Assembly (NCBI GenBank): GCA_021797915.1
Contig: JAJZYT010000005.1
Span: forward strand, 10,043-74,042
DNA from: Thermoplasmata archaeon
GTDB taxonomy: Archaea; Thermoplasmatota; Thermoplasmata; Thermoplasmatales; GCA-001856825
Direction: 5' to 3'
DNA length: 64,000 nt
The notes under the pieces were generated by a model. It was not told the DNA's origin. It did not search any database and saw only the letters and a list, made by a program, of their open reading frames with translations. Positions within the stretch are counted from its first letter, which is position 1. Each line of letters begins with the position of its first letter. Below, piece by piece: positions 8,020 through 32,241 of this stretch. The position numbers and the translations under genes are program-made.

Positions 8020-8390
8020 TCTCTAATTCCGAAACATCGGTGAATGATATATACTGAGAGTAAATTTAGAGATGGTAGTCCCAGGATGGCCATCGCCAGA
8101 AATGGTGAGGAAAGTCCTCCCTCCAGGTAGCAATCTGGATAAAACCCTGGTCGAGAGACCTGCTTCGCCTCAAAAGAAATGACACAGCTTCGGTTAAGGA
8201 TGAACCTCTCGGAGGGGACGTTCCCGAAAAATATGATGAGACAGAGGAGGAGAGATAGGAGCAAGCTCAAGCAGTTCCGAAGACAGCTATCACAGGAACA
8301 GGTAGAGCGCACGAGTCAAATGCCATCAACCCGGAAGGGGTAACAGAAGGAGGCTTACTCGGGACAACCTCTACTTTCCAGACCGGAGCT

Positions 8391-11153: not shown

Positions 11154-11176
11154 GATACCCCAAGAATAATTCCTAA

Positions 11177-12646
11177 TTATTCTTTTTCGAGTTTTTCGAT
11201 CCATCTCTTCCTTGAATAAATTATCAATGACCCGACAACTATCACTAATGCGGACGTCGAAACCATCAGACCGATTAGTGGTATTTTGCTAAAGGTTCCT
11301 ACAAAAGGAACAACGGATAAGGAAAGGGTGCCTTGACCTGTTCCATTGGTGGTAAAAGAGATTATCGTCTCGTTCGCAGTTCGAGTCACTGTGAAATTTC
11401 CCCCGTTGGATCCCACTCCCTTTAGTGAGAAGCTCGAAACTGAATAGTTGCCCTGAATGACAATTACGAACTTCTGTGAACTGTTCTGTATGAATTGGAA
11501 ATCCAGTACACCGCGTTCGAAAGATAGGTTCTGAGACGTCACATTCGGCGAAAACGGAACGAAATAAGCCTGGTTATTTATGAAAATTTCCGTCGATGCG
11601 TTACCAAGATGGCCATTGCTGTTGTTGGGCTGACCGTTTGTAGAATGGAATGAGGGGAGGAATCTTATCAACACAAAACTGATTGGAGAATTCACTTCAA
11701 GGGTTGAGTTTACGATTGACACTCTGCCATATATGTCCACGTACCCCAGTGTTTCGGCCCCTCTATTGATCTTGAGGATGTGTTCTTCGTAAAATGGGAT
11801 GATGGAGTGCGGGGATGGATCGTAGTTAGAATTAACCACCTGCAACGATTCACGATCCGAATTGCCGAAACTGAATCCGTCCGAGAGAGTTATGTTAATA
11901 GAACTATCATATCCCTGGAGGTACATTGTGGGGAATAGTCCATCTGAAGCCAGAATGCATGTACTACCGGGTACCGAAAAATCTTTGGTGCTGAAGGATA
12001 AGAGAGTACTTTCAGAACTGGAAATGTTTGAAATTATCGCAACAGATGAGTCTTGATTTATTAAGGAGTAGTCCTTGATTTCACCATTTGCATAGCCAAA
12101 GCTGGAGTAGTTACCGATGAAAGAGTAACCGTTGAATTGCATGCTGTTTTGGCTAAAATTGAAGTTGGATATTGGCGCGCTCATGTACGAGATGGCAAAG
12201 TGTTGGAGGAAACTCGAACCACTTATTGATAGTTGATTCGCGCTTTCCGATATTTTACCAGTCGTGAATAGTGTTCCAAGATAGTTTGATTGGTAAAAAT
12301 ACACATATTCTAAGACTGACGACGAGTATGAAAAATTGCCTACCGACGAAAAAGAAATCGCAGGTGTGATAGTGACATTACTCAACCCCTGCCAAAAGAG
12401 GGAAATCACGCTTTCGTCGTTGACATAAGGTTGGGTTAAGCTAGAAGATGTTCCGGTGACATTGACATACTTGAACACATCAACCGTCTGACTGTTGACA
12501 TGGACGGTAAAGTTTGAAATACCGTTCGTTGTGCTGTTGTAATCGTCGAAAGAAGTTACAGAGCTAATCCCAGATGCACTAGTCAGAGATAACCCAGAAA
12601 GCAGCATCAGGGAAGCCACTATTAACGCAACGACGAGGTACCTCAT
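11177..12646 (-). CDS. Secreted, C-terminally anchored, sequon-rich surface glycoprotein candidate
   Basis: N-terminal signal-like helix (MRYLVVALIVASLMLLSGLSL), C-terminal TM followed by a basic tail (..LVIVVGSLIIYSRKRW), and many N-x-S/T sequons. Confidence 0.7.
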   Translation of the reverse strand: MRYLVVALIVASLMLLSGLSLTSASGISSVTSFDDYNSTTNGISNFTVHVNSQTVDVFKYVNVTGTSSSLTQPYVNDESVISLFWQGLSNVTITPAISFSSVGNFSYSSSVLEYVYFYQSNYLGTLFTTGKISESANQLSISGSSFLQHFAISYMSAPISNFNFSQNSMQFNGYSFIGNYSSFGYANGEIKDYSLINQDSSVAIISNISSSESTLLSFSTKDFSVPGSTCILASDGLFPTMYLQGYDSSINITLSDGFSFGNSDRESLQVVNSNYDPSPHSIIPFYEEHILKINRGAETLGYVDIYGRVSIVNSTLEVNSPISFVLIRFLPSFHSTNGQPNNSNGHLGNASTEIFINNQAYFVPFSPNVTSQNLSFERGVLDFQFIQNSSQKFVIVIQGNYSVSSFSLKGVGSNGGNFTVTRTANETIISFTTNGTGQGTLSLSVVPFVGTFSKIPLIGLMVSTSALVIVVGSLIIYSRKRWIEKLEKE

Positions 12647-17181: not shown

Positions 17182-18144
17182 CTACCTTCCGACAGATATC
17201 ACAATTGTGTCTCCCCTTGAGACTTTTTCAAAAACTGCAGATACTGTGACCGTGCCTGACTCGGACCCTGTCCTCTTAACAATCAACGGATCAATGACTT
17301 TAAATCCATCCATCATCCTTTTCTTGACTTCAGCGTCAGTTCCTCTTTGAACCACACAGTATATCTTCAGGAAGTCCACGTTAGAAGAAATGAGCAGCTT
17401 AATTGGATCTTTATCAAATTGATAACGGTAATTCAAGAAGAGATTCTTTTCGTCCATTTTATGCAGCGGTTTATTCAAAGTAATTGTGAGTCCTGTCTGT
17501 CCTGCAAAGGAGTATACAATGTTTTCCTTCGACAAAGGGATACTTCCAGTCTCATCGAAGGCAATCAAATTTATCTGATCAGGAGAATCAACGACTCCAA
17601 CTGGAAGTGGCAGAGGCATCCCAGTTACAATTTTAAGCCCTGAATTTACAACGTGGGCGAATACTGCAACAGAAGGTACCTCTTTAGTGAAATCGAAAGC
17701 TACGGACATCGTGCTCACCTTCGTGTCTTGTGCGGATGGGTCTTCTGTTTTCCTACTATAGTAGTATGAACTTCCTTCTGTCCTTCGGTTGATGAGATCG
17801 AGTTTCAATAGCTTCTTGATGTTCCTGTGGATTGTAGTAGGACCTATCGGTCTGCCATAGACATTTTCGAGCATTGACTTTATATCTTTGAACCTAAATT
17901 CCTTCCCATTCATTCTCTTGTAAACGATCTCCTGAAGAGAATCTGCGATGGAATTGTTTGAGATTGAATTAAGTCGACTGTCATATCCAATGACAACATC
18001 TTTTCTAAAAAAGTGCGACGTGCCGTCTGAATGAATGAATCGAGCATAATGGTAAGTTTTTCCCTTGGACTTTGTGACATAATTTATCTTTCTCGCCTGC
18101 CCGCCGCACACTTGGCACTCGCTTTGAATGGATTTTCGGCCCAT
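17182..18144 (-). CDS. Cassette 1, protein B: CCHH zinc-knuckle + winged-helix-like + beta-rich C-terminal domain; family unknown
   Basis: CQVCGG..x..FIHSDGTSHFF, then FRFKDIKSMLE..TIHRNIKKLLKLDLINRR. It aligns end to end with 29726-30658. Confidence 0.75.
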   Translation of the reverse strand: MGRKSIQSECQVCGGQARKINYVTKSKGKTYHYARFIHSDGTSHFFRKDVVIGYDSRLNSISNNSIADSLQEIVYKRMNGKEFRFKDIKSMLENVYGRPIGPTTIHRNIKKLLKLDLINRRTEGSSYYYSRKTEDPSAQDTKVSTMSVAFDFTKEVPSVAVFAHVVNSGLKIVTGMPLPLPVGVVDSPDQINLIAFDETGSIPLSKENIVYSFAGQTGLTITLNKPLHKMDEKNLFLNYRYQFDKDPIKLLISSNVDFLKIYCVVQRGTDAEVKKRMMDGFKVIDPLIVKRTGSESGTVTVSAVFEKVSRGDTIVISVGR

Positions 18145-18189
18145 CTGACTGTCAATTATTTCCTCAGATATTCAACTTTCTATTTCAAA

Positions 18190-19161
18190 TCATACGACTG
18201 ACTTATCGAGAGTCCACTTGAGCTGCAGGACCGAAAATGCCTCTACGTCTCTTAATGAAATGCTGTGAATATACTTCCATTTTGGGGATTCACTCTCCGC
18301 CAAGCGATTCGTAAGGTCTTGGGTTTCATTTCTGGAGGAAGAGGTTAAGGACGCAATCAAATTGATCGGGTTGTTACCAGAAATGGTAAAATCAAGTCTC
18401 GTCATGTTAGTGGCCGACCAAATTGCGAAGTTCTGTTTCGTTTCTGGGACATAATATTCAATTCTCATTTTTCTTCTCTCTCCTGGCAAGAGGGGAATTG
18501 GGAATCTCATAAGCACCCTCTTCTCCAGAGGAGTATCTTCAAGAAGAGTTACTTTTAGATCCTTCGAATTAGAAAAGTCGAATGCCTTGTATTTCAATTC
18601 TGTGAAAGTTATACCAGTATCCGCAGTAATTCTGAATGGCATAAAGGAAATAGACCATGCGTGATCATTCCTAATCTCATACGAAAACGAGTGCTTTCTG
18701 AACATGCCGTCATTTAGTACATCTCCTAGGAAAATTTCAATTGTATCGAATACGAAGCTAAGTCTTTTCTTATCCATAGTATTGATATAAAAAAGACTCC
18801 TCCCTCTCTTTTGCTTCTCTACTATTCCTGCTTTTTCTAATTTGTCTAGCGCATACTGTATTGAAGTGAATCCTAAGTTTGAATATTTTTGAGCAAGATA
18901 TTTTCTAACGTCGATTATTTGAAAGTCTCCGGAATTAAAGGTCTGAGAGTTTAGTAAACCTATTAACGCATCTTCAAGTTCTCCCTTTTTTATCATCCGA
19001 GAACCTGCTGAGTTTATGTTTAAATAATGAACTTTTCCTTCATGATGGTACACTAAGTATTCATAACGATTTCCTTTTCGATTCGTCGTCCAGGAATGAG
19101 TGACCCTCGCTTTGAAACCGCATATGGGACAAACTCCCTCTTCAAAAGAACGCACCATCAA
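18190..19161 (-). CDS. Cassette 1, protein A: CCHH zinc-knuckle + winged-helix-like + beta-rich C-terminal domain; family unknown
   Basis: EEGVCPICG..YHHEGKVHY, then ..IQYALDKLEKAGIVEKQKRGRSLFY. It aligns end to end with 28712-29668. Confidence 0.75.
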   Translation of the reverse strand: MMVRSFEEGVCPICGFKARVTHSWTTNRKGNRYEYLVYHHEGKVHYLNINSAGSRMIKKGELEDALIGLLNSQTFNSGDFQIIDVRKYLAQKYSNLGFTSIQYALDKLEKAGIVEKQKRGRSLFYINTMDKKRLSFVFDTIEIFLGDVLNDGMFRKHSFSYEIRNDHAWSISFMPFRITADTGITFTELKYKAFDFSNSKDLKVTLLEDTPLEKRVLMRFPIPLLPGERRKMRIEYYVPETKQNFAIWSATNMTRLDFTISGNNPINLIASLTSSSRNETQDLTNRLAESESPKWKYIHSISLRDVEAFSVLQLKWTLDKSVV

Positions 19162-19224
19162 ACGATATTAACATATAGTATAAAAATTAGAAAAAATGTA
19201 GGATAGTTAGAAAGAATGATTGGT

Positions 19225-19320
19225 CTATCCGCCACCAAAGCTTGCCCCGCTCAAAGCATGGGCAATTGCGAAGTAAGCGACGCTTCCAAAAGCAATCACC
19301 AAAGATATCAGTTCAAACAT
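19225..19320 (-). CDS. Cassette 1 micropeptide: 31 aa, single TM helix, C-terminal GGG (not in the ORF track as such)
   Basis: MFELISLVIAFGSVAYFAIAHALSGASFGGG*. A G-rich SD-like GGGGG lies ~9 nt upstream of the ATG. A positional and compositional counterpart is at 28555-28656. Confidence 0.5.
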   Translation of the reverse strand: MFELISLVIAFGSVAYFAIAHALSGASFGGG

Positions 19321-19371
19321 TTTTATTCCCCCTATATGACAATTCTCATTACCTATTTCGACACTTCTACA

Positions 19372-19393
19372 GAGTTCGAAAGTTTTCGAACTC
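19372..19393. promoter_or_regulatory. Cassette 1 palindromic operator candidate
   Basis: GAGTTCGAAA-gt-TTTCGAACTC, with 10-bp perfect arms, lies 52 nt upstream of the micropeptide ATG. It matches the cassette 2 site with compensatory arm changes. Confidence 0.55.
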
Positions 19394-19477
19394 TCTAATA
19401 ATGTTGAATTACCCCCCACGAATATTGAAAAGAAATGGAATCTGACCCCTCAAGTACGATAGCTGGACTACGAGGGA

Positions 19478-19675
19478 CCGCGCAGCAAGAGTATGAGGTA
19501 TCAAGGAATGGTAATATAGCTGCATTAGCGGTAGGAGAGGATCTAGGGCTTGGGAAAGGCATCTGTCGCGGGAACTTATCCCCCTCCCACGACGGAATGC
19601 CTACCCATAACTTGTGGTCTAATAGCAATAGTCTCAAGAAGCTAAGTTGGACTATGGTTTTAGACTTAAGGGTAG
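19478..19675 (+). ncRNA. Candidate structured RNA segment inside the cassette 1 spacer (strand uncertain)
   Basis: Nested helices by eye: 19601-06/19670-75 (CTACCC/GGGTAG), 19617-22/19660-65 (GTCTAA/TTAGAC) and 19628-33/19650-55 (ATAGTC/GACTAT). Also 19478-86 pairs with 19519-31, and 19558-68 with 19590-601. Long ORFs on both strands suggest the lack of stops is compositional. Confidence 0.2.
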
Positions 19676-19852
19676 CTTGGGAAATGTCAAACCCTACCGG
19701 TTTAGCGGATAAAACGAGAATAAAATCAAAACCGTTTATCGTCAAGCCCATGAAAGGTGTAGAAAGAAGCGATTTGATATACCAAAATTTTAAGACTGGG
19801 GAGGTTGGGTCAAGGGACCTGGAATTGCGGAATACAAAGGAGGAAAGAGAAC

Positions 19853-20287
19853 TTGGCAATTGACGAAGTAGTGTTTGCAAATCGTAAACTGCTGAGAGTA
19901 CTGGGAGAGGATAACGAAAGATATAAAGATGACACGAAACTCATGGTTTCGCTGCACAGCATCGAGTTCAGTCATAGAAAAGAAGGCTATCTAGAAGTTG
20001 CAAATGACGTGTTCTTTTCAAACCTCATTTATTTACTGTACATTAAGAAAATAGTTGCTGGAGCGGACCTTGAGACCGCTAAAGAAAAGAACAAGTCTGT
20101 CTTGATCAAAGAACTAGAAAGGAAGAAATCCTTGGTTCTGAAAAGGTCCTCTGTTCGTTCTACAGATGCTCTTGACTGCGGGAAAACTGACAGAAAACTG
20201 GTACTGTTAAATAAGGCGATTTTCATCCTGAAGCGAGATGAGAAAGAAACTGCATTTGGCGGCTTTGATTTTTCCAGGATAGTTTAG
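19853..20287 (+). CDS. Cassette 1, protein X: helical ~144 aa protein of unknown family
   Basis: A TTG start at 19853 is preceded by AGGAGG at 19839-19844. It is paralogous to 27633-28040 (VANDVFFSNLIYLLYIKK versus VARNIFISGLPYMLYFKN; ETAKEKNKSVLIKELE versus EKAKEIAKKVLIKHIE). Confidence 0.6.
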   Translation: MAIDEVVFANRKLLRVLGEDNERYKDDTKLMVSLHSIEFSHRKEGYLEVANDVFFSNLIYLLYIKKIVAGADLETAKEKNKSVLIKELERKKSLVLKRSSVRSTDALDCGKTDRKLVLLNKAIFILKRDEKETAFGGFDFSRIV

Positions 20288-26966: not shown

Positions 26967-27524
26967 TCAACTTAAAGTGCCGGTTATGGAGCCAATATAT
27001 CCATTGTAAGTAATGTCAATCTGCAGACCTGAAAGTTTCACTGGGGCTCCAGTGGAGTGAAAAACTATGTAAATTATTGCCTGAGATTGGATGTTCGTTG
27101 CACCGTTTGCGGGAATCGCTCCGTTAGAAGACCAAGTGTCTCCGCTGCTCGTGAAAGTGTTCATATAAAGGACTGTCCCATCTGGATTTGTAATTGTAAC
27201 ATTTTCAACTGTCCACCCAACACCGGTGGGTTTGTCACTTCCATTTATCATTTGCATGTGAAATTTTGATGGGTCACTCAGCTTAGAAGGAGTTGCTAAG
27301 TTCAACATTAGCGTTGTCGTATTTGTTCCAAAGGATTCTTCTGTTATGCTTCCAATTAATGGTGAGGGAGTCGTATAGTGTGAGACGAGAATATAAACGG
27401 TTGTTGCCAGTATAACTGTGACTGCAACCATGAGTATAGTGGCGATGACTGGAGATACAGCTTCATCTTCCGCGATTTGAAGTGGCCAAATTTTCTTATG
27501 TGTTTTCCTAACGACATCCTTCAT
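26967..27524 (-). CDS. Archaeal type IV pilin-like protein (class III signal peptide, DUF1628-like N-terminus)
   Basis: ..EDEAVSPVIATILMVAVTVILATTVYILV.., followed by a Thr/Asn-rich beta-type domain. Confidence 0.65.
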   Translation of the reverse strand: MKDVVRKTHKKIWPLQIAEDEAVSPVIATILMVAVTVILATTVYILVSHYTTPSPLIGSITEESFGTNTTTLMLNLATPSKLSDPSKFHMQMINGSDKPTGVGWTVENVTITNPDGTVLYMNTFTSSGDTWSSNGAIPANGATNIQSQAIIYIVFHSTGAPVKLSGLQIDITYNGYIGSITGTLS

Positions 27525-27632
27525 TTCTTTTCATCTGGTACTCCAGAAGTGTAAAGAAATGCCTAAATGCAATATATATTTTGAGGTCTTCAAGGACTTC
27601 GAAAAGTGCGCGAAACATTGATTTTCTAGCAT

Positions 27633-28040
27633 TTATGCGCCCCTGAGTATAGTGAGAGCACGTTCGAGTAATTCCAGTCTGATTTCAATACATCTTAATT
27701 CAGTAGGCCCATCGCAGATCAATTCCAAATCTTTGATTCTTTCCCTTCTGTCTTCGATATGCTTTATGAGTACTTTTTTGGCAATCTCTTTGGCCTTTTC
27801 AAAATCATCACTGACACGTCCAATGCTTAGATTCTTGAAGTAAAGCATATATGGAAGCCCTGAAATGAAAATGTTTCGGGCTACTCTATAATAACCCACC
27901 GAGGAATGATCAAATTTCACTTTACTGAAGGAGATTAACAGTTTGAGGTTCTCCCTTTTCCTCCCAGCAGCTCTATTGACTTCAAGGTCATCAAAAAATT
28001 TCGCACTTTCAATGATTTTATTTCTGCACTGCTCTTCCAC
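27633..28040 (-). CDS. Cassette 2, protein X': helical 135 aa paralog of 19853-20287
   Basis: GTG start with an AGAAGG SD-like element upstream. The alignment to X is described under that feature. Confidence 0.6.
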   Translation of the reverse strand: MEEQCRNKIIESAKFFDDLEVNRAAGRKRENLKLLISFSKVKFDHSSVGYYRVARNIFISGLPYMLYFKNLSIGRVSDDFEKAKEIAKKVLIKHIEDRRERIKDLELICDGPTELRCIEIRLELLERALTILRGA

Positions 28041-28331
28041 TTCGAAACCTTCTAATATTATGAATGTTAATATCTTCTAAAATATCAATAATGGATAATC
28101 TCATAAAACCTGATTTACTGAGACTTTCCAGACACGTGTTCTTATTGAAAGATTTTTTGGGTAAGAACATAATAATGAAACGAATTCTGTTAGGCATAGA
28201 TTCTGAAAGTTCTCCTGATTTTCCTGACAATGATATAAAGGCTTGAACTCGTAATTGTCTTTTACCGTGAACATTTGATCATTTGCAGTTTTATTTTCAT
28301 TGTATACGTCATGAGTTCCATCATTAAAGGC

Positions 28332-28358
28332 AGAGAGAGCCCAAATCGGGCTCTCTCT
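28332..28358. other. Perfect 11-bp stem / 5-nt loop hairpin in the cassette 2 spacer
   Basis: AGAGAGAGCCC-aaatc-GGGCTCTCTCT. No T-tract follows on either strand. Confidence 0.6.
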
Positions 28359-28482
28359 TCGATGGCCCCTCCGCTTGAGTGATGAATCAACAGTTCTGCA
28401 TAGACTGCTGAAAGTATTTGCTGTCTTCCCAATCATTACTCTACTATACGTCATACTCTGGTTGGTCTTTAATACCACCAGA

Positions 28483-28503
28483 GAGTTAGAATAACTTTCT
28501 AAC
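28483..28503. promoter_or_regulatory. Cassette 2 palindromic operator candidate
   Basis: AGTTAGAA-taact-TTCTAACT, 10 bp upstream of a TATA box and ~51 nt upstream of the micropeptide ATG. Confidence 0.55.
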
Positions 28504-28513
28504 TTCCCGTTAG

Positions 28514-28521
28514 TATAAAAA
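28514..28521 (+). promoter_or_regulatory. TATA box candidate for the cassette 2 micropeptide/A'/B' transcript
   Basis: TATAAAAA lies 34 nt upstream of the ATG at 28555. A GAGGGAG SD-like element follows. Confidence 0.5.
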
Positions 28522-28554
28522 TATCAGACTGTATTTGTAATTCGAGGGAGAGTA

Positions 28555-28656
28555 ATGATTGAAATATTTACTCTGGCAATCGGACTCGCTTTGAGCGTCT
28601 ATTTTACGTTGATAAACCCCATTATCGAGGGAGGAGTTGCTGCAGGTGGAGGATAA
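28555..28656 (+). CDS. Cassette 2 micropeptide: 33 aa, single TM helix, C-terminal GGG (below the ORF-track cutoff)
   Basis: MIEIFTLAIGLALSVYFTLINPIIEGGVAAGGG*. The SD-like GAGGGAG is 5-11 nt upstream. Confidence 0.5.
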   Translation: MIEIFTLAIGLALSVYFTLINPIIEGGVAAGGG

Positions 28657-28711
28657 GTTCTTCTCTCTTTTTCATTTTCTAACTTTTAATATGCGTTGGG
28701 ATTGTTTGTAG

Positions 28712-29668
28712 ATGACTTATTCTAAAGAAGAGGGGATCTGTCCATTCTGCAAGAGAAAGTCATTCATAACCAGGAAGTGGGTTCTGAACAACTATAAGAC
28801 TAGGTATAGTTACACCATTTATCATCACGATGGGTCCGTCCACTATTCCAATACAACCCCGAATAATGCCAGAACATTCAAGAAGGGGATTATAGAAAAG
28901 GTTTTGATAGAAACCATAAACTCAGAAAATTTCAAAGATGGATTGTTTCTGACGCGGGACATCAAGAAGAGACTCCAAAAGGAGTATCAGGAAATAAGCT
29001 CAGACACTCTTAGAGATAATCTCCACAGGCTAGTTGAGATTGGCATGCTGGAGAAAGTCAGAAAAGGGAGGCAGATCTACTTCCTCAATGCCATATTTAA
29101 GGACAGACTCAGCTATGTTTTCGACTCAGTTAAGTTCTCCCTCGGCGATACAAATGAAGATTCACTATTCAGGAGCCATGTTTCTGTCTATAACATTAGA
29201 AATGACAAAACCTGGCCACTGTATTTTCTGCCGTACCGAATTTTTGGTGATACAGACATTATCTATGATAAAATGAGATTTAAGGCAATTGACTTGACAA
29301 ATAATGAGGACCTAAAGGTTCTACTTATTGAAGACAATCCAAGGGAAAAGAGAATTTTGATAAGACTGAATAGACCTCTCTTCCCGAATGAAAACATGAA
29401 AGTAAGGTTTGATTATGATTGGCAAGAACCTAGGCAGAATTTTGTTTTTACAGCTGCAACTCATATGAACGCATTTGAGATCGTTCTCTCCAGCAACTAT
29501 CCCCTCAAGATTCAGGCATCCCGAACTATTTCTACTATGAACGAGCTCAAGGATCTGTCAAACGAAGTTGTAGGAACCAGGACCAAAAAGTGGAGATTTG
29601 TATATTCCGTGAAGTTGAAATCAATAAGACCATTTTCTGTTCTCCAGTTTAGGTGGAAAAGGACTTGA
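28712..29668 (+). CDS. Cassette 2, protein A': paralog of 18190-19161
   Basis: Matched blocks: EEGICPFCK..YHHDGSVHY; KAIDLTNNEDLKVLLIEDNPREKRILIR versus KAFDFSNSKDLKVTLLEDTPLEKRVLMR; FSVLQFRW versus FSVLQLKW. Confidence 0.75.
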   Translation: MTYSKEEGICPFCKRKSFITRKWVLNNYKTRYSYTIYHHDGSVHYSNTTPNNARTFKKGIIEKVLIETINSENFKDGLFLTRDIKKRLQKEYQEISSDTLRDNLHRLVEIGMLEKVRKGRQIYFLNAIFKDRLSYVFDSVKFSLGDTNEDSLFRSHVSVYNIRNDKTWPLYFLPYRIFGDTDIIYDKMRFKAIDLTNNEDLKVLLIEDNPREKRILIRLNRPLFPNENMKVRFDYDWQEPRQNFVFTAATHMNAFEIVLSSNYPLKIQASRTISTMNELKDLSNEVVGTRTKKWRFVYSVKLKSIRPFSVLQFRWKRT

Positions 29669-29725
29669 AAGTTTTCGAGATATTGTCGGCAACATTCAAT
29701 ATTGTTGGCAAAATGTGTGATTCAG

Positions 29726-30658
29726 ATGCCTAGAAAACCAGCAGAGTCTTTGTGCAAAATTTGTGGGGCAAATGCAACAGTGAAGATCAACTACGCAACG
29801 GGGAGTGGAGGAACAGTTTACTTGTACGAGATTTACACCCACAAGAACGGGACGGTTCATTACTTCAGGCCGGGAAAAGTTTTACAAAAACGGGATGCGT
29901 TCAGTGACTTTGAAGCGACGCTAAGAACCAAGATGAACGATGGAGAGTACAGGTTCAAAGATATAAAGAAGCTTTTTGAATCATTTCGCGGCTCATCAGC
30001 AAGCAACACCATGGTGCAGAGATACATTGAGAAAGGGATGAGGGCAAAACTTATCAGGAAGTCAGTCGAAGACGGGATGATACTTTACTTTAAGGGGAAC
30101 CAGAGAGATTCGCCCAAAGTCGTTAAGATTCAAGAAACATCTGTATCTTATCATATTTCAGACTCAGCAGTGGCAATGTCAATTCTTCTCAAGTTCTTAA
30201 ACGAAGGTGAAAGCCCACTCAACAGGATCCCAATAACTATACCTACGGGGATCATAGACACTATCAGTGAACTTAATATTGAATCGTTCGACAAATTTGG
30301 CAAGATATCGGAGGGAAACATGGAGATAGCATTTTCTTTTACCGGACAGACCGGGATTGGAGTAGGTTTGAGGAGATCCCTGGGTCCTTCTGAGAGTGAT
30401 TTCCTTTTCGTCACCAGTCGATTCACTTTTTCCGAGCATTCACTGAAGTTTGCACTACCACTTGACACAGGTTCACTCAGAATTCATATTACCAAGGAAT
30501 GGGAAAAACCTGTGCACGTCAGAAAACGTTTATTGGATGGTATAAAGGAAACCAACCCCGATAGTGTAAGGAAGGGGTTCTTAAGCGACGGCCTGAGTTT
30601 TGCCGAAGTCGAATTTGGCAAGTCTAGCAAGGGAGAGGCAGTTGTAGTCTCTTGGTAA
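29726..30658 (+). CDS. Cassette 2, protein B': paralog of 17182-18144
   Basis: The start is taken at MPRKPAESLCKICG (compare MGRKSIQSECQVCG). Matched blocks: YRFKDIKKLFE versus FRFKDIKSMLE; FTGQTGIGVGL versus FAGQTGLTITL; VRKRLLDGIK versus VKKRMMDGFK. Confidence 0.75.
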   Translation: MPRKPAESLCKICGANATVKINYATGSGGTVYLYEIYTHKNGTVHYFRPGKVLQKRDAFSDFEATLRTKMNDGEYRFKDIKKLFESFRGSSASNTMVQRYIEKGMRAKLIRKSVEDGMILYFKGNQRDSPKVVKIQETSVSYHISDSAVAMSILLKFLNEGESPLNRIPITIPTGIIDTISELNIESFDKFGKISEGNMEIAFSFTGQTGIGVGLRRSLGPSESDFLFVTSRFTFSEHSLKFALPLDTGSLRIHITKEWEKPVHVRKRLLDGIKETNPDSVRKGFLSDGLSFAEVEFGKSSKGEAVVVSW

Positions 30659-30909: not shown

Positions 30910-31206
30910 ATGATCTTGGATTGGACAACCATACTGAATTTTGCCCTGACTTTCGTCGTAGGACTGCTGTTCGGGCTGGCCATTAAGAAGGGACTGGTGG
31001 CGTTCGTGCTTGCACTCGTTGGCTTCGTCATTGCTGGTTATGTCGGGTTGACTTTCGTTCCTAAGATTTCGTTCAGTTATGAAGTAACTAAGTTTATCAC
31101 TTATGTTGTAACTTATATCCACGACGTTAAGCTAGGGGCAATTGCAGTATCTCTGACAGTTATACTGTTTCTGATAGGCCTTGCAATTGGGCTCTGGAAG
31201 GGATAA
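30910..31206 (+). CDS. Small 3-TM membrane protein, paralog of the C-terminal module of 3771-4304
   Basis: 98 aa with an identical C-terminal ILFLIGLAIGLWKG. Confidence 0.65.
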   Translation: MILDWTTILNFALTFVVGLLFGLAIKKGLVAFVLALVGFVIAGYVGLTFVPKISFSYEVTKFITYVVTYIHDVKLGAIAVSLTVILFLIGLAIGLWKG

Positions 31207-31321
31207 GTCAATTTTTGTTTTTAATTTAGTTTCTATGTTTTACGGTAAGAGCTGATTCTTTGCATTTCAGGAGGGTGAGTTGGAATAAAGGTTGATTAAG
31301 TCGTAAATAATTCATTCTGGA

Positions 31322-32080
31322 TTGAAGAAGGTAATAGAAGAGGAAGCAGTTTCCGAAGTCGTGGGGACCATATTGGTTCTTGCAATAACAGTTGTTTTGT
31401 TCTCTGCAGTTTTTGTTTACGCCCAACAGTTTCCCCTCGCAACTACCTCAAAACAGATCACCGTAGTTCAGCAGCTGTCCTACAATATAGATACACACAC
31501 ACTATTCGAGAATCTTACGGAGAAAACGGGAAGCATCCTATTGAGAAGCGATACGTATTTTGTGGTCCTCATCGACAACCACGAATACTCGACAAACCTT
31601 GCAAACATGCGAGTTAAAAGTCCCTATGAAAATTCCTCTTCGTTATTCGAGCCCGGAGATACAATAACCTGGAACAGTTCGTATGTCGGTGCGACTGTAA
31701 GAGAAAATTCCTCGATCAACTCTATGCTTCTTTATAGACCCTCAAACCAAGTCCTGTGGCAATCCGTGAATAATGTCTCTAGCGGGTTATCCATTTCAGT
31801 CTTCTATGTGACTCCTTCCCCGATAAAAGCAAATGAAACTTTCACTATTTTTGTTCAGGTAAACACTTTTGACCCTAATGGGACAACAGCATATCTGAAT
31901 CTCACTTCACTCTATGAGACGGCTTACAACAAGTCGATGAACATCTATAGTCTGTCAGAAAATAAATTAAATTTCTACTTTGAGGGAATTTCACCTTCCT
32001 CCCTTCCAAGCTCCTCAATGGCAAAGTTGAATGTAACCTGTGATGGCATTTCTGTGAATTCTGAGATTAACCTATCTTGA
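31322..32080 (+). CDS. Archaeal type IV pilin-like protein (class III signal peptide)
   Basis: TTG start. The N-terminus reads ..EEEAVSEVVGTILVLAITVVLFSAVFVYA, and a sequon-rich beta domain follows. Confidence 0.6.
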   Translation: MKKVIEEEAVSEVVGTILVLAITVVLFSAVFVYAQQFPLATTSKQITVVQQLSYNIDTHTLFENLTEKTGSILLRSDTYFVVLIDNHEYSTNLANMRVKSPYENSSSLFEPGDTITWNSSYVGATVRENSSINSMLLYRPSNQVLWQSVNNVSSGLSISVFYVTPSPIKANETFTIFVQVNTFDPNGTTAYLNLTSLYETAYNKSMNIYSLSENKLNFYFEGISPSSLPSSSMAKLNVTCDGISVNSEINLS

Positions 32081-32241
32081 ACCTTGATGCCGATCATCCG
32101 CTGTATCTCTCCATTTAGTCTCCCAATTATTAGACATCTGAAATCAGCGAAGTTAGAAAATATCGTGTAGAAGCCACCGCAGAACCTACATATGTTGACT
32201 TCTCTGACAAACATCTATATATTTCGAAGAGATTGTAAATT

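Follow-up and report, generated by a model that had tools for sequence, protein, structure and literature searches.

In each of two related gene cassettes of this archaeon, a conserved palindrome probably forms the central protein-binding site, whether an operator or an upstream activating one, of a bidirectional promoter with dyad symmetry, and its likeliest binders are A and/or B, two paralogous proteins encoded in the same cassettes. The operator reading is well supported by the conservation and position of the sequence: a short dyad-symmetric motif keeps its place amid diverging flanks and lies at a fixed distance from TATA-like boxes. The initial annotation had proposed a conserved palindromic operator here, and conservation and position agree with it in that the site is conserved, promoter-associated and dyad-symmetric, as fits a transcription-factor operator just upstream of BRE/TATA. 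From this setting we infer that A and/or B bind the site and that the cassettes are autoregulated.

The window (the whole stretch of DNA analysed, 64 kb) belongs to a Thermoplasmatales archaeon known solely from metagenome-assembled genomes, and the nearest relatives of its proteins are found in Thermoplasmatales/Thermoplasmata metagenome-assembled genomes, I-plasma included. An archaeal RNase P RNA lies elsewhere in the window (8074–8369). Each of the two cassettes consists of a micropeptide gene followed by A and B, cassette 1 being on the minus strand, and beyond each palindrome a divergent unit runs the opposite way, its last gene being one that we call C. Both micropeptides (31–33 aa) are hydrophobic and end in GGG at the C-terminus. 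Between the cassettes, A1 and A2 are 40% identical, B1 and B2 28%, and C1 and C2 33%.

19225–19320, minus strand: micropeptide gene 1 (31 aa, MFELISLVIAFGSVAYFAIAHALSGASFGGG; ATG at 19320; peptide kept in most related loci)
18190–19158, minus strand: A1, predicted zinc-ribbon, winged-helix and beta-sandwich protein
17182–18144, minus strand: B1, paralogue of A with the architecture of A
28555–28656, plus strand: micropeptide gene 2 (33 aa, MIEIFTLAIGLALSVYFTLINPIIEGGVAAGGG; ATG at 28555)
28712–29668, plus strand: A2 (318 aa)
29726–30658, plus strand: B2 (310 aa counted from the ATG at 29726)

The palindromes themselves lie between the micropeptide genes and the divergent units:

19371–19394, no strand assigned: cassette-1 palindrome, AGAGTTCGAAA-AC-TTTCGAACTCT, perfect over 11+2+11 (24 bp), with the core GTTCGAA..TTCGAAC
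28484–28504, no strand assigned: cassette-2 palindrome, AGTTAGAA-TAACT-TTCTAACT, found at the same position in cassette-2-type loci

The first of these is orthologous to the GTTAGAA-N5-TTCTAAC of the remaining cassette-1-type loci. Both strings quoted in the initial annotation exist, namely GAGAGTTCGAA-AACT-TTCGAACTC on the minus strand in cassette 1 and GAGAGTTAGAA-TAACT-TTCTAACTTC at 28481–28506 in cassette 2; for cassette 1 the sequence was right but its coordinates, 19372–19393, were two bases short, the string spanning 19395–19372 on the minus strand. The distances then reported from palindrome to micropeptide ATG, 52 nt in cassette 1 and 51 nt in cassette 2, were reproduced, as was the start of TATAAAAATA at 28514, 10 bp beyond the cassette-2 right arm.

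Palindromes with 8-bp arms are not rare in the window (13 observed against about 12 expected), and arms of 11 bp or more occur in only two palindromes, the cassette-1 site and a hairpin at 28332–28358. What makes the motif significant is that it recurs in matching position in the two cassettes and again in related loci, not palindromy alone. The pattern AGTTMGAA-N2-7-TTCKAACT has two matches in the window, one in each cassette, versus 0.00 in 100 shuffles, and the half-site alone is mildly enriched (7 observed, 3.3 expected). We rejected a dispersed repeat or the inverted repeat of a mobile element, since the 64 kb contain just the two cassette copies and each 7-kb related locus a single one; within this same sequence the motif is confined to the cassettes. 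Given the related loci described next, the palindrome marks the family as a whole and is not to be put down to chance or to dispersed repetition.

A profile of A homologues yielded 23 loci from species-representative genomes, and remoter members of the family were collected by exhaustive profile search and contig look-ups. Most of the approximately 35 related loci, all from Thermoplasmatales metagenome-assembled genomes, have a single GTTAG-N-CTAAC site in the same place, and by sequence comparison the palindrome is their best-conserved non-coding element: in 18 non-redundant loci the information content per position is 1.9 bits for the arms, 1.35–1.5 for the TATA-like boxes and 0.5–0.6 for the other flanks. 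Exactly one GTTMG-N5-10-CKAAC occurs per locus in 21 of the 23 genome loci. At the other two (L005 and L009) the left arm is ATTAG, which falls outside the GTTMG pattern, and the site is still in the same position upstream of the micropeptide gene. Over 206 kb this pattern has 25 matches, the window's four included, against 4.2 in shuffles. Arms are 8–12 bp long in nearly all loci. In the main clade, 17 of 23 loci have an inter-arm core of 19 bp and the rest one of 18 or 20 bp. In the wider family it ranges over 14–21 bp, a variation that is unusual for a rigid dimer and counts against the operator reading. Six genomes, the window's included, hold both cassette types, 9–13 kb apart and pointing away from each other.

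The GTTAG/CTAAC core is kept even in loci whose A proteins share only 21–35% identity with those of the window. The most distant cassette (L027, with A 20–23% identical to the window's) has another palindrome, TTTTTTTCA-GAA-TGAAAAAAA, equally far from the start of the micropeptide, and a different palindrome at the same position fits a cognate pair of protein and site.

The pilin-like genes had been suggested earlier as members of a possible regulon, and operator copies sought there (27525–27632, 31180–31321, 32080–32241) were not found; one AGTTAGAA near these genes, at 32151, lacks a partner arm. Neither the 64-kb window nor the 7-kb flanks of related loci show a regulon that reaches past the cassette. 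A metagenome-wide scan for AAGTTAGAA-N3-6-TTCTAACTT matched at least 120 stretches; among the matches listed, 119 came from unrelated organisms (GC 0.19–0.70) with no A/B homologue and one was a new cassette (L092). An 18-base pattern is too short for a collection of this size, and the scan therefore says nothing on a regulon. Literature searches found no paper on the A/B family or the motif.

Around the palindrome the dyad symmetry continues for about 25 bp to each side and takes in both TATA-like boxes (a region of about 50 bp); in the two cassettes of the window and in their closer relatives, 14–20 of 25–26 positions per side are mirrored. Across loci, an outward-facing TATA-like box stands 10 nt outside each arm. 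The layout is TTTAATA-CCACCAGAGA-[GTTAGAA..TTCTAAC]-TTCCCGTTAG-TATAAAAATA in cassette-2-type loci and TATTCAATA-GTATGATAAA-[GTTAGAA..TTCTAAC]-TTTACAGTAG-TATCGAAATA in cassette-1-type loci. The boxes in the window are:

28514–28523, plus strand: micropeptide-2 TATA box TATAAAAATA, 41 nt before the ATG (GTATAAAAATA conserved in cassette-2-type loci)
28466–28475, minus strand: cassette-2 divergent TATA-like box (TATTAAA on the minus strand; TTTAATAC conserved), mirroring the opposite TATA box
19354–19363, minus strand: micropeptide-1 TATA-like box, TGTCGAAATA here and TATCGAAATA in other cassette-1-type loci
19402–19410, plus strand: cassette-1 divergent (D/C) TATA-like box, TGTTGAATT here and TATTGAATA in relatives

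On the micropeptide side the TATA box precedes the ATG by about 41 nt, with a Shine-Dalgarno-like GGGGGAT/GAGGGA in between. Transcription in archaea usually starts about 26 nt from the TATA box, and on that spacing the palindrome would cover about -40 to -60 relative to each predicted start site and is predicted to lie outside the transcripts, between two outward promoters. This setting of two divergent promoters, and hence the probable control of a second unit, was missed in the initial annotation.

The same half-site recurs singly before the A genes:

28677–28684, plus strand: A2-promoter half-site TTCTAACT, at -35 from the ATG (BRE position), adjoining the TATA-like TTTTAATAT
19185–19192, minus strand: orthologous A1-promoter half-site, the degenerate TTCTAATT, at about -34/-36 from the A1 ATG, adjoining TTTTTATAC
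19205–19212, minus strand: extra copy of TTCTAACT, at -54 from the A1 ATG, lineage-specific

Extra half-sites before both A genes had been noted earlier, and both are present; the one at 28677–28684 is positionally conserved, whereas that at 19205–19212 is peculiar to its lineage and is not the conserved site. In 12 of 19 non-redundant loci TTCTAAC keeps a constant position, -36/-35 relative to the A ATG, some others have near-matches, and the A-promoter half-site is found even in distant relatives (L025 and L092, and as ATCTAAC in L150). It adjoins TTTTTATAC or TTTTAATAT, about 28 nt before the A ATG, the spacing of TATA box and ATG that is commonly seen in this genome, in promoters of leaderless type. 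Adjoining the TATA box, the half-site occupies the BRE position of A's own promoter. We considered and rejected TTCTAAC as a general promoter or BRE element of this genome, because other TATA-bearing promoters of the window are without it and because the spacing between it and the TATA box is not constant (10 nt at the divergent pair, 0–1 nt at the A promoter, 4–5 nt in L024 and L025).

The initial annotation had called the adjacent proteins winged-helix proteins, and AlphaFold2 models with Foldseek matches predict the same of both A and B. The A2 model (mean pLDDT 71) comprises a beta zinc-ribbon, a winged helix (residues 60–126) and a beta-sandwich (139–302). The zinc-ribbon of A is of C2H2 type with invariant C10, C13, H39 and H44, and the recognition helix spans about residues 97–109. 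The middle domain of A2 is predicted to have the three-helix bundle and beta-hairpin wing of the winged-helix fold, and Foldseek gave it matches of probability 1.0 (TM 0.4–0.7 on the target) to DsrD, PerR, AspA and the winged-helix DNA-recognition domain 2mh2. The B2 model (pLDDT 79.5) has the architecture and secondary-structure pattern of A2, with a beta-sandwich that resembles the N-terminal domain of M1 aminopeptidases and an oligosaccharyltransferase subunit; A and B are homologous over their first 125 residues (E = 7e-9).

Searches of Pfam, NCBIfam, PADLOC and PDB sequences gave A and B only sub-threshold winged-helix matches, those of A all falling on residues ~60–135 and on winged-helix regulator families, and the PDB sequence search returned no match at E <= 5. 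Two families were tried and rejected on score: TrmB (Pfam PF01978), for which A1 reached 13.1 bits against a cut-off of 25.6 and A2, B1 and B2 had no match, and BlaI/MecI (Pfam PF03965, Penicillinase_R), for which the cut-off is 22.6 bits and A1 reached 21.5, A2 15.6. The A/B family is small: of 1.8 billion cluster representatives, only about 22 are full-length members.

The units on the other side of the palindromes differ between the cassette types:

28320–28445, minus strand: cassette-2 divergent candidate structured RNA (~120 nt, ends approximate), with two covarying hairpins and a conserved ACGnGGAGGGGCCA
19435–19863, plus strand: cassette-1 divergent ORF 'D' (142 codons), followed by gene C (about 19856–20287)

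On the cassette-2-type divergent side ORFs are not conserved, and a stretch of about 120 nt is, with ACGnGGAGGGGCCA invariant. In this candidate RNA 90% of cells are paired versus 36–52% after sliding the partner columns, 14 of 20 pairs show compensatory changes, and the observed covariation score was reached in none of 500 shuffles. Rfam gave no match at either cassette, at gathering thresholds or at E <= 1. ORF D (138–142 codons) is open in all ten cassette-1-type loci. The stop codon of D overlaps or adjoins the beginning of gene C, and substitutions in D fall evenly on the three codon positions (e.g. 37/32/38 and 48/48/48). Gene C found nothing in curated family searches (Pfam, NCBIfam, PADLOC, PDB sequences). 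The cassette-2 RNA and the cassette-1 leader contain complementary invariant motifs (GGAGGGG and CCCCCTCC, respectively), which could link the cassettes at the RNA level.

Under the operator reading, two inverted half-sites, GTTAGAA/TTCTAAC (GTTCGAA/TTCGAAC in this lineage's cassette 1), would stand back to back between two promoters, one driving the micropeptide gene and the other ORF D with gene C (cassette 1) or the ~120-nt structured RNA (cassette 2). A and/or B would bind as homo- or heterodimers, each half-site being contacted by one winged helix. Since BRE/TATA on both sides has the site upstream of it, its occupancy would probably co-regulate both promoters. Archaeal sites upstream of BRE/TATA activate, while overlapping or downstream sites repress (PMC4158304), and on this analogy activation is somewhat more likely than repression at the palindrome. 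On the third, single half-site, at the BRE position of the A promoter, bound protein would instead block TFB/TBP and so bring about negative autoregulation.

Parts of this arrangement are familiar from other systems. In bacteria, the winged-helix repressors BlaI/MecI bind dyad operators in the divergent blaZ / blaR1-blaI intergenic region and control the neighbouring gene as well as their own operon; BlaI acts on sigma-70 promoters and is a protein of ~125 aa with a helical dimerisation domain, and has neither zinc-ribbon nor beta-sandwich. The cassettes resemble this system in having a dyad site between two divergent promoters, and Penicillinase_R is the best Pfam match of A1 (E = 3e-4), but the operator here is upstream of both TATA boxes whereas theirs lie over core promoters. 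Among Euryarchaeota, the sites of TrmB, TrmBL1 and Tgr are inverted repeats (TGM TATCAC-N5-GTGATA; TACT-N7-8-GAGTA; PMC4158304). Here, as there, a winged-helix domain is joined to a C-terminal domain, the inverted repeat has a spacer of about 5 nt that is sometimes variable, and function appears to be set by position relative to BRE/TATA; autoregulation has been proposed for those regulators too (PMC4158304). The differences are that A and B have an N-terminal zinc-ribbon and a beta-sandwich where TrmB has a sugar-binding domain, that the motifs are unrelated, and that no regulon beyond the cassette was seen in the sequence examined. Ptr2 of Methanocaldococcus and TFB-RF1 of Pyrococcus bind just upstream of BRE/TATA (PMC4158304), as the protein at our palindromes would, with recruitment of TBP or TFB as the proposed action, and by position activation at the cassette promoters would be of their kind. 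They belong to different protein families (Lrp-type and others), and their sites serve one promoter whereas the palindrome is placed symmetrically between two.

It is unlikely, if conceivable, that the operator is genuine but bound by a regulator encoded elsewhere, with A and B in another role. The tie of A/B to the site is one of context, and the C-terminal domain of A and B is unlike known regulator effector domains, a point against these proteins as operator binders. Moreover, the recognition helices of A differ between cassette types although the half-site is identical, so that the correspondence of helix and site is not simple, which counts against A as the binder. Against a distant regulator, the site occurs only beside A/B genes in all sequence examined, a lone half-site stands on A's own core promoter, and the palindrome accompanies the cassette over 21–97% protein identity, to be replaced by another palindrome in the most divergent one.

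The site might also not be read as a palindrome at all. Two independent promoter-proximal elements, each TTCTAAC + 10 nt + TATA and set back to back, could be read by a monomer or basal factor; this would account for symmetry that runs through both TATA boxes, for the same half-site standing alone at the A promoter, for arm spacing of 14–21 bp across the family and for one locus (L154) that has the right half-site only. We nevertheless think it improbable, given a core of 19 bp in 17 of 23 main-clade loci (else 18 or 20), the two mirrored substitution pairs that keep cassette 1 perfectly palindromic, and other promoters of the window without the half-site; the varying distance from half-site to TATA box (10, 0–1 or 4–5 nt) also argues against a basal promoter element. 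Far less probable still is that the palindrome acts as a nucleic-acid hairpin, whether RNA stem-loop, terminator or DNA cruciform. The perfect 24 bp of cassette 1 would suit such a structure, and an inversion of the central AC/GT among close relatives suggests hairpin-mediated events there, but the site lies between outward-facing TATA boxes and so is predicted to be untranscribed, its stems are A/T-rich with no T-run after them, and a terminator scan found no terminator-like site there. Its arms are conserved in sequence, not covarying, over about 30 loci, the opposite of the covarying hairpins 130 bp away.

Returning to an operator bound by A and/or B, the C..G versus A..T difference between the two palindromes of the window had been taken as a specificity switch between paralogous systems. 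As a general feature this is not supported, since both cassette types use GTTAGAA/TTCTAAC in the five other genomes with both cassettes (I-plasma, YP5.bin4, FK1.bin53, CAYMEF and DBS2-4.bin120); two further genomes, sampled for one cassette type only, have the same arms. The C..G state is limited to cassette 1 of the window's species group (the window, L019 and L021), with A..T at every other locus, and by this distribution it is a single derived event, not a divider of paralogous systems. The mirrored substitution is real and preserves the dyad, as had been pointed out, but it is not the only arm difference: in the window lineage a second mirrored pair changes AAAG...CTTT to AGAG...CTCT, and the palindrome stays perfect. 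Two mirrored pairs are unlikely by chance, which suggests that symmetry is being maintained, although hairpin-templated copying between the arms, and not selection, could have produced them. The window and L021 have AC as the central dinucleotide, and L019 has the inverse, GT.

Within the window lineage the half-sites before A1 did not follow the C/G change, and remain TTCTAAC(T)/TTCTAATT. The A1 recognition helix reads TSIQYALDKL in this lineage versus GSIKVSLNRL, with changes at five consecutive positions that are otherwise nearly invariant in cassette-1-type proteins; this is suggestive, though no significant excess (differences at 5 of the 12 conserved positions in the helix and at 48 of 168 over the whole protein). 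We hold it possible, if rather doubtful, that in this species group the paralogous cassettes are becoming insulated, with operator and regulator co-evolving in cassette 1 and cassette 2 keeping the ancestral site. If true, this would be a natural snapshot of one regulatory circuit splitting into two.

As an element type, the palindromic operator of an adjacent regulator is ordinary; the protein family attached to it is uncharacterised. The cassette, a micropeptide with two paralogous zinc-ribbon/winged-helix/beta-sandwich proteins, is restricted to Thermoplasmatales and has no curated family, and the candidate structured RNA on the cassette-2 divergent side was previously undescribed. What the palindrome adds is a precise, testable cis-element, with the consensus GTTAGAA-N5-TTCTAAC centred between two TATA boxes, for which the palindrome itself, the lone A-promoter half-site and the natural C/G variant are ready-made wild-type and mutant binding probes. 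Through it, control of the cassette probably reaches a second, divergent unit as well, the structured RNA included.

The two cassettes, each comprising a micropeptide gene and the paralogous genes A and B, form a conserved pair that lie 9-13 kb apart, face away from each other and recur in at least six genomes. The pairing was recognized elsewhere in the related loci L002/L020, L005/L015, L006/L016, L009/L017 and L011/L019. Metabolic genes (MoCF, an MFS transporter, MarR, an esterase, DAO and ornithine cyclodeaminase) separate the cassettes in the window, and cassette 2 has archaeal type IV pilin-like genes on either side. Nearly all cassette-2-type loci have a pilin gene of this same type on their divergent side; no copy of the operator was found before the pilin genes.

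17182-20287 and 27633-30658, the cassette pair
26967-27524 (-) and 31322-32080 (+), type IV pilin-like genes flanking cassette 2
19225-19320 (-), micropeptide gene 1
28555-28656 (+), micropeptide gene 2

The micropeptide family is kept across related loci at a total length of 28-36 aa, with the pattern M[FI]E[IL], then a hydrophobic helix, Y[FY] and a C-terminal GG...GGG. In the I-plasma lineage (L005, L009), the cassette-2-type locus retains the palindrome, a putative operator, with the micropeptide absent or replaced. At another locus, L025/L026, the micropeptide ORF is only 12 codons long. This locus also carries a second palindrome related to the main operator, TTTAGAA-T-TATTCTAAA, which precedes that operator by about 175 bp and the A gene by about 312 nt.

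The centre of the cassette-1 palindrome (19382-19383) reads AC in the window and in L021, and its reverse complement, GT, in L019 (2768-2785), while the rest of the palindrome is identical. The swap is consistent with hairpin-mediated inversion or a template switch within the palindrome. At the 3' end of an ORF on the reverse strand (11177-12646), elsewhere in the window, is a palindrome whose 10-bp arms match perfectly (AAGAATAATT-CCT-AATTATTCTT, 11162-11184); its sequence is unrelated to that of the cassette operator.

The divergent units of the two cassettes comprise a candidate structured RNA in cassette 2 and, in cassette 1, ORF D followed by gene C.

about 28320-28445 (-), candidate structured RNA of cassette 2, about 120 nt, two hairpins with compensatory changes
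28332-28358 (-), hairpin 2 of this RNA
19435-19863 (+), ORF D, open in all cassette-1-type loci
start near 19856, gene C, overlapped by the ORF D stop

The predicted cassette-2 transcript runs divergently from the palindrome and had no match in Rfam. Compensatory changes occur at 14 of the 20 pairs in its two hairpins, in which 90% of cells are paired, as opposed to 36-52% in slid controls. It contains an invariant ACGnGGAGGGGCCA, always 122 nt away from the palindrome, with a T-rich tail after it.

ORF D is an open frame of 138-142 codons in 10/10 cassette-1-type loci; its evolution is unlike that of a normal protein, as substitutions are equal over the three codon positions. Within it lies ATCCCCCTCC, invariant at the nucleotide level and complementary both to the gene C ribosome-binding site AAGGAGGGG, about 270 nt downstream, and to GGAGGGG of the cassette-2 RNA. 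This arrangement, in which the ORF D stop overlaps the gene C start, suggests that ORF D is a translated leader, which would control C by unmasking its ribosome-binding site.

The proteins A2 and B2 were modelled.

28712-29668, A2
29726-30658, B2

In Foldseek searches with predicted models, the C-terminal beta-sandwich of B (and A) resembles the M1 aminopeptidase N-terminal domain and, in an oligosaccharyltransferase subunit, the luminal domain (E ~1e-7 to 1e-8). In a winged-helix protein such a partner domain, as modelled, is unusual; this beta-sandwich is the only part that about 50 other proteins, of different architectures, have in common with A and B. One contig (L150/L155; ena ERZ27233560 k141_984052) carries a tandem array of A/B-like paralogs, four to five in number (314, 338, 319, 346 aa), that is without a micropeptide gene, adjoins a ParB_N gene and is preceded at its first gene by ATCTAAC+TTTTATAC. 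The array may represent a version of the A/B family borne on a plasmid or other element.
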